From the NCBI GenBank assembly GCA_964609315.1, contig CAZSRG010000004.1, positions 1 through 42,418 on the forward strand: a stretch of 42,418 bases of DNA, written 5' to 3'. Source of the DNA: an uncultured Planctomycetia bacterium (GTDB taxonomy: Bacteria; Omnitrophota; Gorgyraeia; Duberdicusellales; Duberdicusellaceae). Positions 6,716 through 42,418 of the stretch are shown here, in pieces. A program made the position numbers and the translations under genes. The number at the start of each line of letters is the position of its first letter. The stretch's first letter is position 1. The notes beneath the pieces are model-generated. The model was not told the DNA's origin. It made no database searches and saw only the letters and a program-made list of their open reading frames with translations.

Positions 6716-6791
6716 TGTGCCCATTAGGGTATTAGGGTATATCTTGATTATTTTATTCCCTTGACATCATTCTTTCATACGGCTCTTGACT

Positions 6792-7732: not shown

Positions 7733-8062
7733 AAAACTCTAAACTCTTCAGCCATAGGCTGATTCTAAACAAATCCTGAAAGCAAACTCTAAATTCTAAC
7801 CAAATCCTAAATCCTAATTTCTAAATTCTAAATAAATTCTAAATTTCAATCTCAAATGTTCTAAACTTTATTTTGGACTCTGCATCTTTCTGTTTTGGTC
7901 ATTTGATATTATTTAGCCTGCCTGCGTCAAGGCTTCCCTCGGCTTCGCCGAGAGGCGAGCGCCGAGAGGCAAGCGGCAGACAGGTATTTAGGGTTTATTT
8001 ATTATTTGGCATTCCGGCCTCTGTCCTTATGTATGATATCAAGACCTGACACCTGATACTGA
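7733..8062. repeat. family-1 element (mosaic, subtype A-like) with embedded GC-rich hairpin
   Basis: ctaaa heptad arm, a ctcttcagccataggctgat module shared with 38148-38170, GC hairpin 7927-7984, and right arm tatttagggtttatttattatttggc. Confidence 0.8.
7927..7984. repeat. GC-rich hairpin module, long version
   Basis: cctgcctgcgtcaaggcttccctcggcttcgccgagaggcgagcgccgagaggcaagcggcagacagg. Homologous in reverse complement to 12744-12797 and carries an internal cgccgagaggc duplication. Confidence 0.8.
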
Positions 8063-8520: not shown

Positions 8521-8735
8521 GGTATTATCAAGAATATTTTTGTTCTCTAAAACTCTAAACCCGAAACTCTAAATAAACCCCAAACATAAAACCTCAAACT
8601 CAAAACGGTAATAAATATAATACTCTTTGTTTTGGGTTTTGTGTTTCCTTCATTTTGAATTTGTTTACCCCGTTAGAGAATTTTGTCTAACATAGATTCT
8701 CTCTAACGGGGTTTAGGATTTAGAATTTAGGATTT
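8521..8735 (+). repeat. family-1 element, subtype B
   Basis: Core is aaaacggtaataaatataatactctttgttttggg. Arms are of aaac/ctaaa heptads versus tttagg heptads. The right arm overlaps the last codons of trmD. Confidence 0.85.
8668..8711. repeat. hairpin insert (ccccgttagagaa...ttctctctaacgggg) in the right arm of the family-1 element
   Basis: Imperfect stem of about 13 bp. It sits between ..gaatttgttta and tttaggatttag, the same relative site as the other inserts. Confidence 0.75.
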
Positions 8736-9476
8736 AGTGTTTCTTCCCCTTCTGCCTTCTGTAACAGGTGTCTGTCCTCTTTTATCCTTTAACAAAAGGT
8801 CCGGCCTTCTAACCATAGTCCTTTGTAAAGCCTGTTTTTCCCTCCAGTCCTTTATCCGCTTATGGTTACCCGAAAGAAGGACTGAAGGGACTCTCCATCC
8901 TTTAAAAATTCCCGGCTTAGTATAATCAGGATAATCAAGAAGCCTTTTTTCAAAACTTTCGTCTTTTACTGAATCAGGATTGCCGGGCACGCCCGGAATA
9001 AGCCTTGCCAAACAGTCAACCAATACCATAGCGGGAATTTCTCCTCCGGAAAGTATATAATCTCCTATGGATATTTCTTCATCAACTAAATGTTCCCTGA
9101 CTCTCTCGTCAACGCCCTCATAACGGCCGCAGATAAGAATAAGATGTTTCTTCTTAACCAGTCTTCTACCTTCTTTCTGAGTTAAGGCCTTCCCCTGAGG
9201 ACTTAAAAGAACAGTCCTTATATTCTTCCCGGATTTACTATATAACTTCTTTACTTTCTCTACAGCCCTGAATATTGGCTGGCACTGTAAAACCATACCC
9301 GGGCCGCCCCCATAAGGAGACGCGTCAACTTTTTTATGCTTATTATCTGTATAATCTCTTAAATTATGAACAGCTATATCGAGAAGTTTTTTGTCCCTGG
9401 CTATCTTTACCGTTCCGGAGGAAAAGACTTCCCGAAACATTTCGGGGAATATAGTAATTATATCTATCCGCATCAT
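8727..9476 (-). CDS. trmD: tRNA (guanine37-N1)-methyltransferase
   Basis: 249 aa with MRIDIITIFPEMF and the LSGGEIPAMVLVD SPOUT-knot motifs. The last codons and stop lie inside an intergenic repeat arm. Confidence 0.9.
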   Translation of the reverse strand: MMRIDIITIFPEMFREVFSSGTVKIARDKKLLDIAVHNLRDYTDNKHKKVDASPYGGGPGMVLQCQPIFRAVEKVKKLYSKSGKNIRTVLLSPQGKALTQKEGRRLVKKKHLILICGRYEGVDERVREHLVDEEISIGDYILSGGEIPAMVLVDCLARLIPGVPGNPDSVKDESFEKRLLDYPDYTKPGIFKGWRVPSVLLSGNHKRIKDWREKQALQRTMVRRPDLLLKDKRGQTPVTEGRRGRNTKS

Positions 9477-12681: not shown

Positions 12682-12710
12682 ATCTTTTCTTTATATTTTC
12701 CTTACATTTA

Positions 12711-12931
12711 GAAAATTAAACTCTAAACTCAAAATCCTAAATCCCTGTCTGCCGCTCGCCTCTCGGCGAAACCGATGGAAACCTTGGCACAGGCAGGCTA
12801 AATAAACACAAAATGAAAGAAAACACAAAAACCAAAACAAAGAACATTATATTTATTATCGTTTTGGGTTTGAGACATTTGAGTTTTAGATTTATTTAGA
12901 GTTTCGAGTTTAGGACTTAGAGTTTAAGATT
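12711..12931 (-). repeat. family-1 element, subtype B, inverted relative to the others
   Basis: The reverse complement of its core aligns with the cores at 8560-8665 and 21830-21900. Carries the GC hairpin at 12744-12797. Confidence 0.85.
12744..12797. repeat. GC-rich hairpin module
   Basis: cctgtctgccgctcgcctctcggcgaaaccgatggaaaccttggcacaggcagg, the reverse-complement homologue of 7927-7984. Confidence 0.8.
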
Positions 12932-12952
12932 ATACAATTGTCTATTTATCTT

Positions 12953-19035: not shown

Positions 19036-19214
19036 CCGTTCTGTCAAAAACATTTTTATTTTCTAAAACTCTAAACACCAAACCCGAAACTCTAAATAAA
19101 TCTAAAATCACAAACTCAAAATTCAAAACATTCATCATCTTCTATCTTTATATTGTTTTGGAATTTGGATTTTCTTCATTTTGAGTTTATTTAGAATTTA
19201 GGATTTAGGATTTT
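19036..19214 (+). repeat. family-1 element, subtype B
   Basis: Starts with ccgttctgtcaaaaacatttttatt and has ctaaa heptads. The right arm is ttcttcattttgagtttatttagaatttaggatttagg. Confidence 0.85.
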
Positions 19215-19250
19215 CTCCCCCCTCATATCAACGTAATGGACTCCAAATAT

Positions 19251-21767: not shown

Positions 21768-21903
21768 CAAACTCTAAATCCTAAACTCGAAACTCTAAAC
21801 TCTAAATAAATCCCAAACTTAAATCTTTTAAACTCAAAACAATAAATATAATACTCTTTGTTTTGGGTTTTGGGTTTTGGATTTTGTGCTTTCTTCATTT
21901 TGA
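21768..21903 (+). repeat. family-1 element, subtype B, left part (interrupted by X1)
   Basis: Ends ...ttcttcattttgag, then GTTAAC of X1 begins. The expected continuation (a)gaatttaggatttagaattt resumes at 22113. Confidence 0.85.
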
Positions 21904-22112
21904 GTTAACCGGGAAAATGCTGTTGAGTGTGCGAAATATCCATAACACCTAGTAATCTAAATAATTACATTAAACGGACGTTGTATTAAAAAGTACACAG
22001 CATTTTCCCCGTAGGTAACCTCAGTCCTATCCGCCTTTCCCCCGCCTACGGCGTGGTAAACGCGGGGCTGACCCTGCGGGCAAATAATGCTAACCGCATT
22101 ATTTGGGTTAAC
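21904..22112 (+). repeat. element X1: 209-nt candidate structured RNA or miniature mobile element bounded by GTTAAC
   Basis: GTTAAC at both ends. A perfect 13-bp long-range stem pairs 21911-21923 (gggaaaatgctgt) with 21997-22009. Terminal 10-bp hairpin at 22081-22105. Homologous in reverse complement to 41607-41884. Confidence 0.8.
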
Positions 22113-22136
22113 AGAATTTAGGATTTAGAATTTCTA
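22113..22136 (+). repeat. family-1 element right-arm remainder after the X1 insertion
   Basis: agaatttaggatttagaatttc matches the right arms at 19195-19214 and 28580-28594. Confidence 0.8.
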
Positions 22137-22168
22137 TTTCTAACTCCCTTTATCCTCATTACCTTACA

Positions 22169-25465: not shown

Positions 25466-25657
25466 GACAAATATATATACATCGCGCGCCCGATAAAAAC
25501 TCTAAACTCCAAATCCTAAATTCTAAATAAACTCAAAATTCAAATGTTCAAATGTTCAAAACAAACTTCTTTTCAATGAGTTATGAAGAACGTTTTGAAT
25601 TTTAATCATTTTGATTTTGGATTTGTTTAGGTTTTAGAGTTTAGGATTTAGGGTTTA
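25466..25657 (+). repeat. family-1 element between dxr and cdsA
   Basis: The left flank is identical in pattern to 1641-1680. Has ctaaa heptads, a caaatgttcaaatgttcaaaac centre and the right arm tttgtttaggttttagagtttaggatttagggttta. Confidence 0.85.
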
Positions 25658-25677
25658 CATGTCTGTGTATTCAATAT

Positions 25678-26514: not shown

Positions 26515-27226
26515 ACCTTCTCTCCCTCATTTTAAAAGAGTCCAGGGCTTTATCAAACTCTCCGGCTGTGAAATCGGGCCATAGGACATTGGTAAAATAC
26601 AACTCGGCATAAGCTATGCGCCAAAGCATAAAATTGCTTATCCGCTCCTCTCCTGAAGTGCGTATTAATAAGTCCACATCCGGAATAAACGGATCATAGA
26701 GATACCCTTGAAAGAACCTTTCATCTAAAGACTTTAGGCTTAAGGAACCTTCTTTAAAATCCTCCGCTATTCTCTTAGCAGCAAAAACGATTTCATCCCT
26801 CCCCCCGTAGTTAAAAGCTATGTTCAGGATGATTTTATCATTATCTTTTGTTTCCTCAACAGCTTCATCTATTCCCGATATTAAATCTTCAGGCAGGCCT
26901 CTTCTCGAGCCCATAACATTAAAGCGGATATCTTTATCACCCTTATTTTCAGACAGGTATTTTTTGAAAGAAGAGAACAAGAAATCAATTTCCTCCTTTG
27001 GCCTTGACCAGTTCTCGGTAGAAAAAGCAAACAAGCTCAGTATTCGGACTCCTCTATCCTTAGCAGATTTAATCACCTTTTGGACATTATCTATCCCTCT
27101 CTTGTGGCCAAAATTCCTGGGCAAGCCTCTTTTCTCCGCCCAACGGCCGTTCCCGTCCATTATTAAGGCTACATGATAAGGAACCGCTGATAATTTACTC
27201 ATTTTATTATTATTTTTTATCGCCAT
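26501..27226 (-). CDS. uppS: undecaprenyl (isoprenyl) diphosphate synthase
   Basis: 241 aa with IMDGNGRWA and the RTSGEERISNFMLWR motifs. Confidence 0.9.
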   Translation of the reverse strand: MAIKNNNKMSKLSAVPYHVALIMDGNGRWAEKRGLPRNFGHKRGIDNVQKVIKSAKDRGVRILSLFAFSTENWSRPKEEIDFLFSSFKKYLSENKGDKDIRFNVMGSRRGLPEDLISGIDEAVEETKDNDKIILNIAFNYGGRDEIVFAAKRIAEDFKEGSLSLKSLDERFFQGYLYDPFIPDVDLLIRTSGEERISNFMLWRIAYAELYFTNVLWPDFTAGEFDKALDSFKMRERRFGKV

Positions 27227-27290
27227 TAGCCATTCGCTATTCGCTCTTGGCTATTCGCTATTCGCTATTTGCCATTTGCCATTAGGCCCC
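27221..27290. repeat. degenerate heptamer tandem array (ccattag/ccattcg/ctattcg type)
   Basis: About 9-10 consecutive 7-nt units. The related short array ctatttgccattcgctattta lies at 1853-1875. Confidence 0.85.
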
Positions 27291-28407: not shown

Positions 28408-28600
28408 ATTGTCAAAGCTATCTTTGTTTTCTAAAACTCTAAACTCTAAATCCAAAACTCTAAATAAACCTAAAACTCAAATGCTTTAAACTCAAAACAT
28501 TAATAAATATACTGCTTTTGCTTTAAACTATATTGTTTTGGGTTTTGGGTTTTCTTCATTTTGAGTTTGTTTAGGGTTTAGAATTTAGGATTTTCTCCCC
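28408..28600 (+). repeat. family-1 element, subtype B
   Basis: Starts attgtcaaagctatctttgtt and has ctaaa heptads. The right arm is ttcttcattttgagtttgtttagggtttagaatttaggatttt. Confidence 0.85.
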
Positions 28601-28645
28601 GCTACTTATACTTTTTCATACAACTCTTGACACTACTTTTGAACT

Positions 28646-34606: not shown

Positions 34607-34618
34607 TTCTCCTCTCCT

Positions 34619-34749
34619 CAATGAGGCCGCAGCTTATGGAGTCCGAAGGATGACATAAGCTGCATGGCCGAATTGATCCCGCCGAAGGTTGGTAAATTGT
34701 CAACGATAATTTACCAACATCTTCTCTGAGGCGGGATTACCTTAATATT
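34619..34749 (-). repeat. element Y-A: two-hairpin structured unit directly upstream of the aminotransferase SD
   Basis: Plus-strand order is caatgag, hairpin 1 (ggcc gcagcttat...ataagctgc..ggcc), gaattgatcccgccgaagg, hairpin 2 (ttggtaaatt..aatttaccaa), then catcttctctgaggcgggattaccttaatatt. Confidence 0.85.
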
Positions 34750-34932
34750 ATAAATCAGCTATCTGTAATTACTCTGGCTGTTGATAGATAATTCTTTCGT
34801 TTTAGCATAATTAGCGAGTCTGCCATTCGCCATCCTCTGTATTTGTTAACAATTCAACCATTTAACAATATATTAATGTATTAATCTCTTCTCTCATTCT
34901 CTGACTCCTGCCCTCTGACTTCTGTCCTCTGC

Positions 34933-35526
34933 CTATTTATGCGGCAGGATAACTTCATCAATCAAGCCGTACTGTTTAGCTTCATCCGCGCTCATAAAAT
35001 AATCTCTGTCAGTATCTTCTTTTACTTTCTTAACCGTTTTTTTGGTATGAGCAGAGAGGATTCCATTTACCTTTTCTCTCAGCCTGAGTATTTCCTTTGT
35101 CTGAATAGAGATATCTTCCGCTGTCCCCTGAGCTCCGCCCCAAGGCTGATGAATCATAATCCGGGAATTAGGCAGAGCAAAACGTTTACCATCTTTGCCC
35201 GCTGCCAAGAGTAAAGCGCCCATACTCGCCGCCTGGCCTATACAGTAAGTAGCCACATCCGGTTTAACAAACTGCATCGTATCATATACAGCCAATCCCG
35301 CGGTGATGGAACCACCCGGAGTGTTGACATACACGCTTATATCTTTTGAAGGATCTTCCATCTGGAGAAAAAGCATTTGAGCGATAACCACATTCGCTAC
35401 GTTATCATCTATCGGTGTCCCGACAAAGATTATCCTGTCTTTTAACAAACGGGAATAAATATCATATGCCCTTTCAGTCCGCTGAGTCTGCTCAATTACT
35501 ATAGGAACATACCCCTGATTTTTCAT
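34933..35526 (-). CDS. clpP: ATP-dependent Clp protease proteolytic subunit
   Basis: Catalytic contexts GQAASMGA and MIHQP. I place the start at the ATG at 35524-35526 ([10 protein letters not shown]), which has GAGGAGG upstream. The track ORF start runs into repeat Y-B. Confidence 0.95.
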
Positions 35527-35538
35527 AAACAACCTCCT

Positions 35539-35670
35539 CAATGAGGCCGCAACTTATGGAATCCGAAGGATGACATAAGCTGCATGGCCGAATTGATCCC
35601 GCCGAAGGCTAGGGTAATTATCAAAGATAATTACCCTGCATCTTCTCTGAGGCGGGATTACCTTAATATT
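35539..35670 (-). repeat. element Y-B, directly upstream of the clpP SD
   Basis: Hairpin 1 matches Y-A except for 2 substitutions. Hairpin 2 is the alternative version agggtaatta..taattaccct. Confidence 0.85.
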
Positions 35671-35681
35671 TATTAATTAAC

Positions 35682-35813
35682 CAATGAGACTGTGATTTTT
35701 TATTATTCCCAATGATAAAAAATCACTTAGTCGAATTGATCCCGCCGAAGGCTAGGGTAATTATCAAAGATAATTACCCTGCATCTCCTCTGAGGCGGGA
35801 TTTCCTTAATATT
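35682..35813 (-). repeat. element Y-C
   Basis: Same conserved single-stranded blocks. Hairpin 1 is replaced by the unrelated 12-bp stem gtgattttttat/ataaaaaatcac. Hairpin 2 matches Y-B. Confidence 0.85.
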
Positions 35814-35823
35814 TACAAATTAG

Positions 35824-35951
35824 CAGTGAGCGCACAACTTACAGAACGAAGTGATTGTAAGTTGTCCGCGCGAATTGATCCCGCCGAAGGTTGGTAAATT
35901 GTCAACGAGAATTTACCAACATCTTCTCTGAGGCGGGATTACCTTAATATT
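35824..35951 (-). repeat. element Y-D
   Basis: Hairpin 1 is replaced by gcgc-acaacttaca/tgtaagttgt-gcgc. Hairpin 2 matches Y-A. Confidence 0.85.
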
Positions 35952-35960
35952 ATAAATTAG

Positions 35961-36013
35961 CTCTTTGCTCTTTGTTACTATCTCTTTGCTAAGAGCCATG
36001 AGCTATGAGCCAA
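35961..36013. repeat. degenerate heptamer tandem array (ctctttg/ccatgag type)
   Basis: Reads ctctttg ctctttg ttactat ctctttg ctaagag ccatgag ctatgag. Shares the ccatgagctat-agcc segment with 1606-1640. Confidence 0.75.
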
Positions 36014-36940: not shown

Positions 36941-37188
36941 CAAACTCTAAATCCTAAATTCTAAACTCTAAACAATTTCAAATATCAAATGTTCTAAATC
37001 CTAAACTAAACTCTAAATTCTAATACCAAATGTTCTAAACATTGTTTTGAATTTTGTATTTTGAACATTTGAGATTGTTTAGTATTTAGAATTTAGTGCT
37101 TAGGATTTATTTATCATTTGGTCATCTGACTTCTGCCCTTTGTCTTCTATCAATGTGTAGGCCTGACCCCTATTCCGGTATTTGTGTT
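36941..37188. repeat. family-1 element, subtype A, plus right-flank module
   Basis: 36961-37124 differs at 3 positions from 1696-1859. The right flank tttggtcatctgacttctgccc...caatgtgtaggcctgac recurs at 38311-38392. Confidence 0.9.
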
Positions 37189-37951: not shown

Positions 37952-38246
37952 AAAACTTCACTCCATCTTACACTCCGTAAATGTCGTGGATTATCTTTAC
38001 GAAGTATAATACCGAGTTATTCTTTTGCTCCCCCACTAATAACTCGCCATTAATCACTAACTACTAAATTCTCTAAACAAAGTCTGAAAGCAAATTCTAA
38101 ATTCTAAACTCTAAACAATTTCAAATATCAAATGTTCTAAATTCTAAACTCTTCAACTATAGGCTGATCCGCCTCAGGCGGAAAATTCTAATACTGTTCT
38201 AAACATTGTTTTGAATTTTGTATTTTGAACATTTGAGATTGTTTAG

Positions 38247-38276
38247 CCTGCCTGCGCCAAGGTTTCGGCAGGCAGG
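38247..38276. repeat. 30-bp GC-rich hairpin module cleanly inserted into the family-1 right arm
   Basis: cctgcctgcgccaaggtttcggcaggcagg is present here and absent at the matching junction gattgtttag|tatttag (37081-37083). Confidence 0.9.
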
Positions 38277-38340
38277 TATTTAGGATTTAGTGCTTAGGAT
38301 TTATTTATTATTTGGCCATCTGACTTCTGCTCTCTGCCTG

Positions 38341-41541: not shown

Positions 41542-41606
41542 TATTTCTCCCAACCGCGTCTGATATCGGATTGCTCTTTGAAAAACTCTCAAAAAATAAG
41601 TTTTTT

Positions 41607-41884
41607 GTTAACCCAAATAACGCGGTTAGCATTATTTGCCCGCCTGTGCCCGCAAGGGTACCTGTGCCCGCAAGGATACAAGGGTAAAAGGCCGGGATTA
41701 CCTAAGGGGAAAATGCTGTGTACTCTTTAATACAACCTCTGTTTAATACAACTATTTAGGCTGCCAGGCGTTATGAGCCCTGTTAGAAAAAGTGTATCTT
41801 TTTTCTCTAACCCCTAACAGGGTGAGCATCTTGCGTTTTCAAACGCGAAACCTGCCCTTAGGATACAGCATTTTCCCGGTTAAC
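41607..41884 (-). repeat. element X2: 278-nt copy of X, minus-strand sense, between the VR-like gene region and kdsA
   Basis: GTTAAC at 41607-41612 and 41879-41884. The 13-bp stem pairs 41707-41719 with 41865-41877. Terminal hairpin at 41614-41638. Has the conserved block ttgtattaaa-agtacacagcattttcccc-taggtaa. Confidence 0.8.
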
Positions 41885-42048: not shown

Positions 42049-42199
42049 ATTTTACATTTCAACTTAAATCAGAAAACAGACGCGGATTTTTCCAGAATCA
42101 AACCCCCATACAATAGTTATTCGGCAATGCCAATCTCTATTCCCCTCTCTCCGGTATATATTTTTCAAAGAGTAAAAGGGTAAAAGTACAAAGTGTTAC

Positions 42200-42418
42200 T
42201 TAGAAGCCCTGCCGACAAACGCGCCCGCCATAGCCGCTGCCACGACTGGTGAAAGTGTGAGCGGCATTGCCGCGGTCAGATACCCGCGTGTAGTGGGTGA
42301 AGCTACCCCAACTACCGCCCCGAAACCCGGAGCCTGTCGCTCCGGTAACCTCTCCTGAACTGGACCCCGGCCAGTCAGATATATCAGCATTACCGTTTGA
42401 AGACAGTTCTCCATTCCC
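42200..42418 (-). CDS. 3' end of a CDS truncated by the window edge; C-terminus resembles a DGR variable region in a C-type-lectin/FGE-like fold
   Basis: Frame with first codon at 42418-42416 reads ...SGFRGGSWGSFTHYTRVSDRGNAAHTFTSRGSGYGGRVCRQGF with stop at 42202-42200. 27 of the 31 codons after the W are NNY. The segment is locally GC-rich. The ORF track does not list it because the window contains no start codon for it. Confidence 0.55.
   Translation of the reverse strand, partial: GNGELSSNGNADISDWPGSSSGEVTGATGSGFRGGSWGSFTHYTRVSDRGNAAHTFTSRGSGYGGRVCRQGF

Follow-up and report, generated by a model that had tools for sequence, protein, structure and literature searches.

A mosaic, MITE-like repeat family with TTAA flanks in one lineage of Omnitrophota

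Two related non-coding elements, X1 and X2, lie in inverted orientation in the window, the 42,418-nt stretch of DNA from an uncultured Omnitrophota bacterium that was analysed here. The earlier note had described them as inverted paralogues that share several blocks, and had pointed both to an inserted, mobile type of unit and to an RNA with a likeness to retrons or other template RNAs. The question raised by this locus is which kind of element X is: a transposed repeat, a structured RNA, or the template of an RT.

Two inverted copies of a non-coding element

The likeness of X1 to X2 is real and far above chance, as had been proposed. Alignment of X1 with the reverse complement of X2 showed identical 5' ends (GTTAACCGGGAAAATGCTG), a near-identical central block that ends in ACAGCATTTTCCCC-N-TAGGTAA, and a near-identical 3' block (GCGGGCAAATAATGCTAACCGC-R-TTATTTGGGTTAAC). 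A repeat finder recovered two pairs of inverted arms, 21941-22018 with 41698-41775 (78 nt, 85%) and 22076-22116 with 41603-41643 (41 nt, 95%). The 13-bp stem common to both elements was recovered as well: the window has four occurrences of the 13-mer GGGAAAATGCTGT, arranged in two inverted pairs, where 0.04 would be expected by chance. The 27-nt block that holds the 10-bp terminal hairpin was found in the window in X1 and X2 only, with the single A/G difference between them that had been described. The features of the two elements are as follows.

21905..21908, no strand: left TTAA flank of X1, one copy of the putative target-site duplication; TTAA here in 36 of 47 complete copies
21909..22107, plus strand: X1 element proper, 199 nt, with TTAA at both flanks
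21909..21923, plus strand: block A, the left terminus of X1, CCGGGAAAATGCTGT, as read in the sequence
21997..22009, plus strand: block B (ACAGCATTTTCCC), the 3' arm of the 13-bp stem in X1
22081..22107, plus strand: right terminus of X1, the 10-bp hairpin CAAATAATGC-TAACC-GCATTATTTG followed by GG; identical in 63 of 87 sites
22108..22111, no strand: right TTAA flank of X1, second copy of the putative target-site duplication; TTAA in 79 of 87 sites
41608..41611, no strand: TTAA flank at the 3' end of X2, whose sense strand is the minus strand
41612..41879, minus strand: X2 element proper, 268 nt, with TTAA at both flanks
41640..41680, minus strand: two tandem 18-nt units (ACCCTTGCGGGCACAGGY) of X2; copy number 0-5 across the family
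41778..41822, no strand: nested 45-nt MITE Y in X2; TGAG duplicated at 41774-41777 and 41823-41826
41880..41883, no strand: TTAA flank at the 5' end of X2, by sequence

Both termini are sequestered in local stems. The left terminus pairs with block B over 13 bp, the 5' arm in X1 being bases 21911-21923, and the right terminus pairs over 10 bp with the segment directly upstream. X1 represents a short-core subtype made up of the left end, the core, block B, a CCGCC...GGCGTGGTAAACGCGG hairpin module and the right-end hairpin, with no 18-nt units; its 3' hairpin module is the rarer one and was also found in two other copies (L022 and L068). X2 represents a long-core subtype, with an extra ATCCTAAGGGCAGGTTTCGCG segment, the nested Y and two 18-nt units. 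The segments between the shared blocks had been called unrelated. This was borne out for the 3' segment, the only one in which X1 and X2 carry different modules, but not for the first variable segment, which is homologous in the two copies and differs in X2 by a 22-nt indel and a 49-nt nested insertion, the latter consisting of the 45-nt Y and one 4-bp duplication.

The stop codon of ispG (GcpE) is on one side of X1 and the start of a gene for a T2SSE-family ATPase on the other; X1 is antisense to both genes. A kdsA-kdsD-kdsC-lptC/A cluster begins with kdsA, and X2 is located 16-66 nt upstream of this gene in the same sense. Both elements are intergenic and stand beside housekeeping genes, and all genes of the window are on one strand. 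Neither X1 nor X2 is overlapped by an ORF of at least 80 aa, in agreement with the earlier view that X has no protein gene of its own, and a scan of the window for tRNA and tmRNA genes detected none. The end of a DGR-like hypervariable gene lies about 310 nt from X2; comparison of X with this hypervariable region revealed no similarity.

Copy number and distribution

Further copies, which the earlier note had left to a wider search, proved to be numerous. There were 93 matches to block C, which represent 87 distinct insertion sites after collapsing by 3' flank, with 47 complete copies of 70-291 nt. Another 33 copies run into a contig end, as repeats of this kind typically break assemblies. One locus (L073) is a strain variant of the X2 locus, with 1 mismatch in 268 nt.

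The family was confined to one Omnitrophota lineage, represented by the MAG Candidatus Omnitrophica bacterium 4484_171 and three JGI metagenomes. An exact 21-mer of block B was found among 185,579 species-representative genomes in three contigs, all from MAG 4484_171 (MVCW01 only). A 20-mer of the 3' hairpin searched against JGI and ENA metagenome contigs matched 76 stretches, 75 of which were from the three JGI metagenomes, mostly Ga0164318. A match from human gut (L056) was rejected as a chance match, the rest of the hairpin being missing. BLAST searches of plasmid and phage collections with X2 gave no match, and a scan of viral contigs for both X ends gave one unrelated, GC-rich chance match and nothing else. 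Literature searches brought up no specific account of MITEs in Omnitrophica or of bacterial MITEs with TTAA.

Insertion boundaries and target site

X1 is inserted within a family-1 repeat and splits it. The earlier note had placed the break at GTTAAC; the interruption itself stood, but the boundary is TTAA and the base that follows it is variable. The true boundaries of X are TTAA-CCGGGAAAATGC...GCATTATTTGGG-TTAA rather than GTTAAC. Conservation across the family extends through ...GCATTATTTGGGTTAA, and the base after the 3' TTAA varies among the 87 sites (T31/G21/C18/A16), so that the 3' C of GTTAAC in X1 is coincidental. Since TTAA is a conserved flank, the elements proper span 21909-22107 (X1) and 41612-41879 (X2).

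Of the 47 complete copies, 36 have TTAA directly before CCGGGAAAATGCTG at the 5' end, and 35 have TTAA at both sides; the 3' tetramer is TTAA in 79 of the 87 sites. Four complete copies have a variant 3' tetramer. Two of these carry the same variant at the 5' side (ATAA/ATAA in L001 and TTTA/TTTA in L042), one has a variant base common to both tetramers (CTGA/TTGA in L025), and in the fourth (L021) the variant 3' tetramer differs from the 5' one. The 5' tetramer is unlike the 3' tetramer in about 8 genuine complete copies (10 were counted, 2 of which are indel offsets). These mismatches fit neutral decay, and they also fit a flexible 5' target.

Empty sites were rebuilt for two copies that had landed in other repeats. 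One copy (L032) sits within another repeat family, and its empty site, assembled from the flanks and one TTAA, aligns across the junction with two uninterrupted paralogues, L023 (...GAGTTTAATTGGTTATTG...) and L004, each of which has a single TTAA. The rebuilt empty site of X1 (...TTCATTTTGAGTTAACAGAATTTAGG...) aligns across the junction with the family-1 paralogues at 19119-19213 and 28485-28586. These are degenerate exactly at the X1 junction (GAGTTTATTTAGAATT) and therefore do not fix the target tetramer of X1. The empty sites with a single TTAA are paralogous repeats, and taken alone they are compatible either with a duplication or with a terminal TTAA borne by the element. Orthologous empty sites were also sought, and none was found: the neighbours of X1 occur only in the source contig (ERZ27227322, k141_1779469), with X1 in place, and L073 has X2.

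Taken together, the flanks suggest that insertion of X duplicates a 4-bp target site, TTAA. At the extreme ends of the element, 12 nt on either side make up an imperfect inverted repeat (CCGGGAAAATGC and CCCAAATAATGC), which is weak at 8 of 12 identical positions. In a mini-copy of about 50 nt (L067), the ends CCGGGAAAATGTTGT and CCCGAAAATGCTAT are identical at about 12 of 15 positions.

Orientation and single-strand transposition

The flanks were also examined in relation to a different mode of movement, in which X would be REP/BIME-like or derived from IS200/IS605 elements. A Y1 (HUH) or RAYT enzyme would then move single-stranded DNA, insertion would take place 3' of TTAA(C), and the element would bring its own terminal TTAA. 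Several properties of X are in keeping with such a history. The two ends are unlike each other, a subterminal hairpin standing 7 nt in from the right one; the 5' flank has a conserved TTAAC and the 3' flank is random; the modules form a BIME-like mosaic; the empty paralogous sites with one TTAA fit equally well; and the 5' tetramers vary more (11 of 47) than the 3' tetramers (8 of 87). Against it, the matching variant tetramers (ATAA/ATAA, TTTA/TTTA and in part CTGA/TTGA), of which there are few informative copies, are expected for a duplication, and the near-symmetric mini-copy has inverted-repeat ends.

Single-strand transposons prefer the lagging-strand template for insertion, and X has no such preference. 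Taking all sites together, 44 copies point the same way as the gene downstream of their 3' end and 38 point the opposite way. When the X-sense strand of the flanking DNA was examined for GC skew, G was in excess in 39 cases and C in 32 (p=0.48). As genes in this genome nearly all follow the skew, the latter comparison doubles as a test of replication-strand bias, and it detected none (39:32). No RAYT or TnpA gene was seen in the 0.57 Mb of sequence of the X loci. A Y1/RAYT origin of X is the chief alternative and was considered unlikely on this evidence. According to the account of REP/BIME elements with their RAYTs and of IS200/IS605 PATEs (PMC2817692), these systems resemble X in being high-copy, mosaic intergenic palindromes with a hairpin beside a short motif; X differs from what is described there in its evidence for a target-site duplication, its lack of strand bias and the absence of an associated Y1 transposase.

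Mosaic interior and nested elements

The grammar of the interior was read from an alignment of 31 long copies and a listing of all copies. From the left end, the order of modules is an optional ACCCTAAGGGCAGG, a 34-nt unit (GCACCTCCTTCGTCCTTCGGACTACGGCGGGCAG, 0-2 copies per element), a core of about 75 nt and block B; 3' of block B, it is TAGGTAACCCC, a hairpin module, the 18-nt units (ACCCTTGCGGGCACAGGC, 0-5 tandem copies) and the right-end hairpin. The hairpin module is of two or more alternative types, one per copy. In at least 16 short copies (70-119 nt), nothing but 18-nt units stands between the left and right ends; these copies have no block B and hence no partner for the 13-bp stem. 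Strain pairs at one locus differ in unit number, with lengths of 153 and 171 nt in L048 and L066, and of 92 nt in L003/L055 and 185 nt in L037.

The Y element nested in X2 has 9-bp terminal inverted repeats (CCCTGTTAG...CTAACAGGG), and the corresponding stretch in copies of X that lack Y is GATGCTCATAA, in which CTCA occurs once. Another element of the Y type is located at 8668-8711 of the window, flanked by TTTA/TTTA, within another family-1 repeat, and a paralogue at 28560-28580 has the uninterrupted sequence TTTGTTTAGG that matches this second site. Y was also found at an unrelated locus (L011), at the same internal position of X as in X2. This indicates that the X+Y composite was copied after Y had inserted, and the copied composite is direct evidence that X has moved. 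The earlier view of X as a discrete, inserted, mobile-type unit was upheld.

These data bear on the proposed likeness to a retron, or to another RT template RNA in which a closing stem surrounds variable cargo. The 13-bp stem that closes the core does resemble the a1/a2 repeats of retron non-coding RNA, as does the general plan of a long closing stem around a structured interior known from msr/msd, and the DGR-like gene end near X2 might have been taken as a hint of the same kind. Unlike a retron, X occurs at 87 dispersed sites and not as one per system, with TTAA flanks and in random orientation with respect to genes. The partner of the stem is missing from the short copies, and what had been called variable cargo is made up of tandem units, swapped modules and a nested MITE. 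No RT was seen in the window or in any of about 80 loci (0.57 Mb of flanking sequence), and X is unlike the hypervariable region in sequence. The retron or template-RNA reading of X is contradicted on each of its testable defining features and is almost certainly wrong, which removes a false lead at X1 and X2.

RNA structure and strand

A broader possibility is that X is primarily a functional structured RNA, either a multi-copy sRNA or a cis-acting stabiliser, attenuator or processing site, and that its spread is secondary. Folding in the X sense was better than that of shuffled sequences for both elements (z = -4.3 for X1 and -3.1 for X2), and the stems are conserved. The opposite strand folds as well (z = -3.0 for X1 and -2.95 for X2), and a similar degree of folding on both strands is expected because X is palindromic DNA. 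The earlier note had taken the single A/G difference in the terminal hairpin as a sign of an RNA read in the X sense. This did not hold across the family, where hairpin variants favour neither strand: those compatible with G-U pairing comprise two types (7 sites) in the X sense and one type (4 sites) on the opposite strand, and one type is compatible with neither.

Covariation was negligible. In an RNAalifold analysis of 31 long copies, the covariation term was -0.56 kcal/mol and both sides had changed in 1 of 39 pairs; the 13-bp stem is nearly invariant in these copies and is therefore uninformative. One striking column pair, TAA[T/C]G with TT[A/G]CATTA (13 T-A, 9 C-G, 3 T-G and 1 C-A), was rejected as a pairing. 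No helix is possible there, and the columns track linked differences between subfamilies (CAGCGG or CAGAGG). A few compensatory changes were found in one internal hairpin module (CCGACC/GGTCGG, CCGGCC/GGCCGG and CCAACC/GGTTGG), which indicates some structural constraint at the level of either DNA or RNA. On the antisense strand, the 18-nt unit is predicted to form CCC-GNRA-GGG hairpins in three of four loop variants.

A search of the whole window against Rfam at the gathering threshold found no family. Rfam was also run at an E-value threshold around X1 and X2, and the best sub-threshold match, of the 3' hairpin of both elements to Bacilli-1, was rejected as chance-level (20-21 bits, compared with a gathering threshold of 55.6). 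No promoter-like or terminator-like sites were found in X1 or X2, promoters being sought by consensus scan, and orientation is random with respect to genes. In favour of an RNA role, the distance from the end of X to the next start codon is 9-30 nt in some copies, and the bacterial MITEs BOX, ERIC and Correia do affect the mRNAs with which they are co-transcribed (PMC3049150). Block B and large parts of the structure are missing from the short copies described above, which argues against a primary RNA function, and such a function for X was judged very unlikely.

Search for a partner enzyme and proposed mechanism

X has the anatomy of a MITE: small (below the 500 bp or so typical of the class), non-coding, dispersed intergenic copies with TTAA flanks and inverted-repeat ends, nested with other repeats and present in one lineage. 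It is probably a new mosaic MITE family of the BOX or BrickBuilt type, mobilised in trans by a transposase encoded elsewhere. The earlier note had named an ordinary MITE, with copies lying next to a transposase, as the alternative to its own reading; this came close to the outcome, except that no transposase was seen in or beside any copy in the roughly 80 loci. Nor did the 0.57 Mb of loci contain an autonomous IS with matching ends. Copies that had block A and no nearby block C were only truncated or rearranged copies beside ordinary genes. A scan for 4-bp duplications with CC...GG inverted repeats 0.9-3 kb apart yielded nothing relevant, with a filter that misses repeats as weak as those of X. 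All-against-all BLASTN of the 0.57 Mb found no long repeat except strain duplicates. Five of the paralogous protein families in the loci, as assigned with Pfam, were sensor kinases, AAA ATPases, HD proteins and a protein with an FGE-sulfatase domain; the largest family includes the two T2SSE ATPases of the window, and neither a transposase nor an RT was among the families scanned against Pfam.

In the most likely mechanism, a transposase encoded elsewhere would bind the ends of X (CCGGGAAAATGCTGT on the left and the 10-bp hairpin ending in GCATTATTTGGG on the right). It would excise or copy the element and open a TTAA target by a cut staggered by 4 bp, into which the element would be inserted; repair of this cut would duplicate TTAA, as in a DDE-type cut-and-paste or copy-paste mechanism. 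The interior is dispensable and changes by slippage of the 18-nt and 34-nt tandem units, by exchange or deletion of hairpin modules, and by insertion of other small MITEs. This explains why X1 and X2 have common ends and a common core and differ in between.

IS1380-family insertion sequences and the eukaryotic piggyBac elements make a 4-bp duplication, have TTAA as the canonical target and have termini of the form CC(C)...(G)GG. Both the 4-bp TTAA duplication and CC...GG termini are present in X, which we take to point to the IS1380/piggyBac superfamily as a lead only. X is like these elements and their MITEs in both features; it differs in its weak inverted repeats and in the absence of such a transposase gene from the 0.57 Mb of loci, and for these reasons membership is a lead and not a finding. 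Y, with CCC...GGG ends and 4-bp duplications, has the same signature. A combined reading, which appears unlikely, is that X and Y are both footprints of a TTAA-targeting CC...GG cut-and-paste system in Omnitrophota, with a transposase that is either a prokaryotic piggyBac/IS1380-like one or undescribed, and that the mosaics have been taken over to serve as structured RNA modules within the leaders and spacers of operons.

Comparison with known modular MITEs

As MITEs, the X copies add a new family to a well-known class. BOX elements have the structure boxA-boxB(n)-boxC, a length of 67-637 bp, terminal inverted repeats and target-site duplications (PMC3049150). The pneumococcal BOX elements and X are both small, non-coding, intergenic and multi-copy, with fixed end modules around variable tandem units, a wide size range (70-291 nt in X and 67-637 bp in BOX), an RNA predicted to fold strongly, lengths that vary from strain to strain, and copies nested with other repeats (PMC3049150). 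X differs from BOX in having no sequence similarity to it, a host of a different phylum, a specific TTAA flank and more types of module (the 18-nt and 34-nt units, two alternative hairpin modules, and a core closed by a stem of its own), and in that no candidate IS partner was found for X in the 0.57 Mb of loci.

The description of BrickBuilt in Porphyromonas gingivalis (PMC4596501) gives a leader, a 23-nt tandem minisatellite, a tail and small inverted-repeat ends. As described there, BrickBuilt is like X a tandem-unit MITE (unit of 23 nt, compared with 18 nt in X) that is always intergenic and restricted to a species. The same account reports 19 copies and promoter activity by experiment, in contrast to the at least 87 sites of X, for which the consensus scan found no promoter-like sites, and X has an additional structured core relative to the BrickBuilt plan given in it.

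The MITE that this reduced, uncultivated lineage would appear to carry is modular, has been active recently and bears a clean TTAA signature, and this signature provides a handle for finding the transposase responsible. X and at least two other small, nested repeat families of the same genome fragment Omnitrophota metagenome assemblies, in which the X family can be masked. Because its copies are polymorphic in length between strains, X can also be used as a strain marker.

Palindromic repeats and elements inserted in them

About ten intergenic regions of the window are filled by family-1 repeats, which are long imperfect palindromes built of units with a 7-nt periodicity (AAACTCT/AAATCCT ... 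GTTTAGG/ATTTAGA). Arrays of other heptamers (ACTATCA, CGCTATT, CTCTGAC) were also present.

Family-1 repeats: 1670-1850, 7802-8023, 8530-8745, 12700-12945, 19045-19230, 21776-22140, 25497-25670, 28412-28610, 36942-37145, 38085-38340
Other heptamer arrays: 1582-1648, 27210-27283, 34896-34934

Y is a second small MITE family, with members of 44-45 nt and the ends CCCYGTTAG...CTAACRGGG. One of the copies listed here lies within a family-1 repeat and the other within X2, a minus-strand copy of the MITE family X, and each is flanked by a 4-bp duplication. A third inserted element, also palindromic, has the form TTTAGCCTGCCTGCG..CAAGG...CGCCGAGAGGCGAGCGGCAGACAGG.

8668-8711: Y copy within a family-1 repeat, duplication TTTA at 8664-8667/8712-8715
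41778-41822: Y copy within X2, duplication TGAG at 41774-41777/41823-41826
7902-7996, 12732-12812, 38232-38306: third inserted palindromic element

This third element sits at the same position of family-1 as the insertions of Y and of X1, the plus-strand X copy, and within the family-1 right arm the TTTA/TTAA-rich centre appears to act as a hot spot for insertion.

Modules and longer variants of X

Free-standing tandem arrays of the 18-nt X unit, ACCCTTRCGGGCACAGGC, were also present outside complete X elements, in either orientation. Judged from sequence, three of the four loop variants of the unit would fold into a CCC-GNRA-GGG hairpin when read on the antisense strand. Longer X variants had a different interior, with GC-rich tandem repeats (...ACGTGGCTCCCCGTGAGGTGGGACGTTGCCCAC..., and CCACCAACGGGGGCTCACGTCCACG in two to three copies) upstream of the usual right end; those in the four fetched loci listed below all run off contig ends and are seen incomplete.

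18-nt arrays outside complete X: L076 2185-2225 and 2318-2390; L050 4485-4545; window 6716-6729
Longer X variants: L008 1-192; L026 1-276; L051 1-240; L079, minus strand, first ~220 nt of the reverse complement

A clustered structured repeat

A structured repeat of 90-110 nt, GATCCCGCCGAAGG-hairpin-CTCTGAGGCGGGAT, is unrelated to X and had no Rfam match at gathering level. Its four copies (66-96% identity) all lie inside 1.4 kb around the ORF at 34933-35541.

34614-34765, 35534-35679, 35732-35822, 35858-35967: structured repeat copies

A hypervariable gene end near X2

L073 represents this locus in a different strain; of its 47 differences from the window over 1.78 kb, 45 fell within a C-terminal coding stretch of ~140 nt.

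42191-42329, minus strand: hypervariable C-terminal coding stretch, stop near 42198, gene running off the window end

An 84% paralogue (L043 1496-1733) belongs to a protein of 538 aa with an FGE-sulfatase domain and the C-terminus ...GFRGGSW.... The stretch resembles the variable region found in targets of diversity-generating retroelements; neither the window nor the fetched loci yielded a template repeat or an RT.

Gene orientation

Every sizeable gene of the window is on the minus strand, and GC skew is negative throughout the 42 kb (-0.08 to -0.33); therefore, gene orientation follows skew very tightly.
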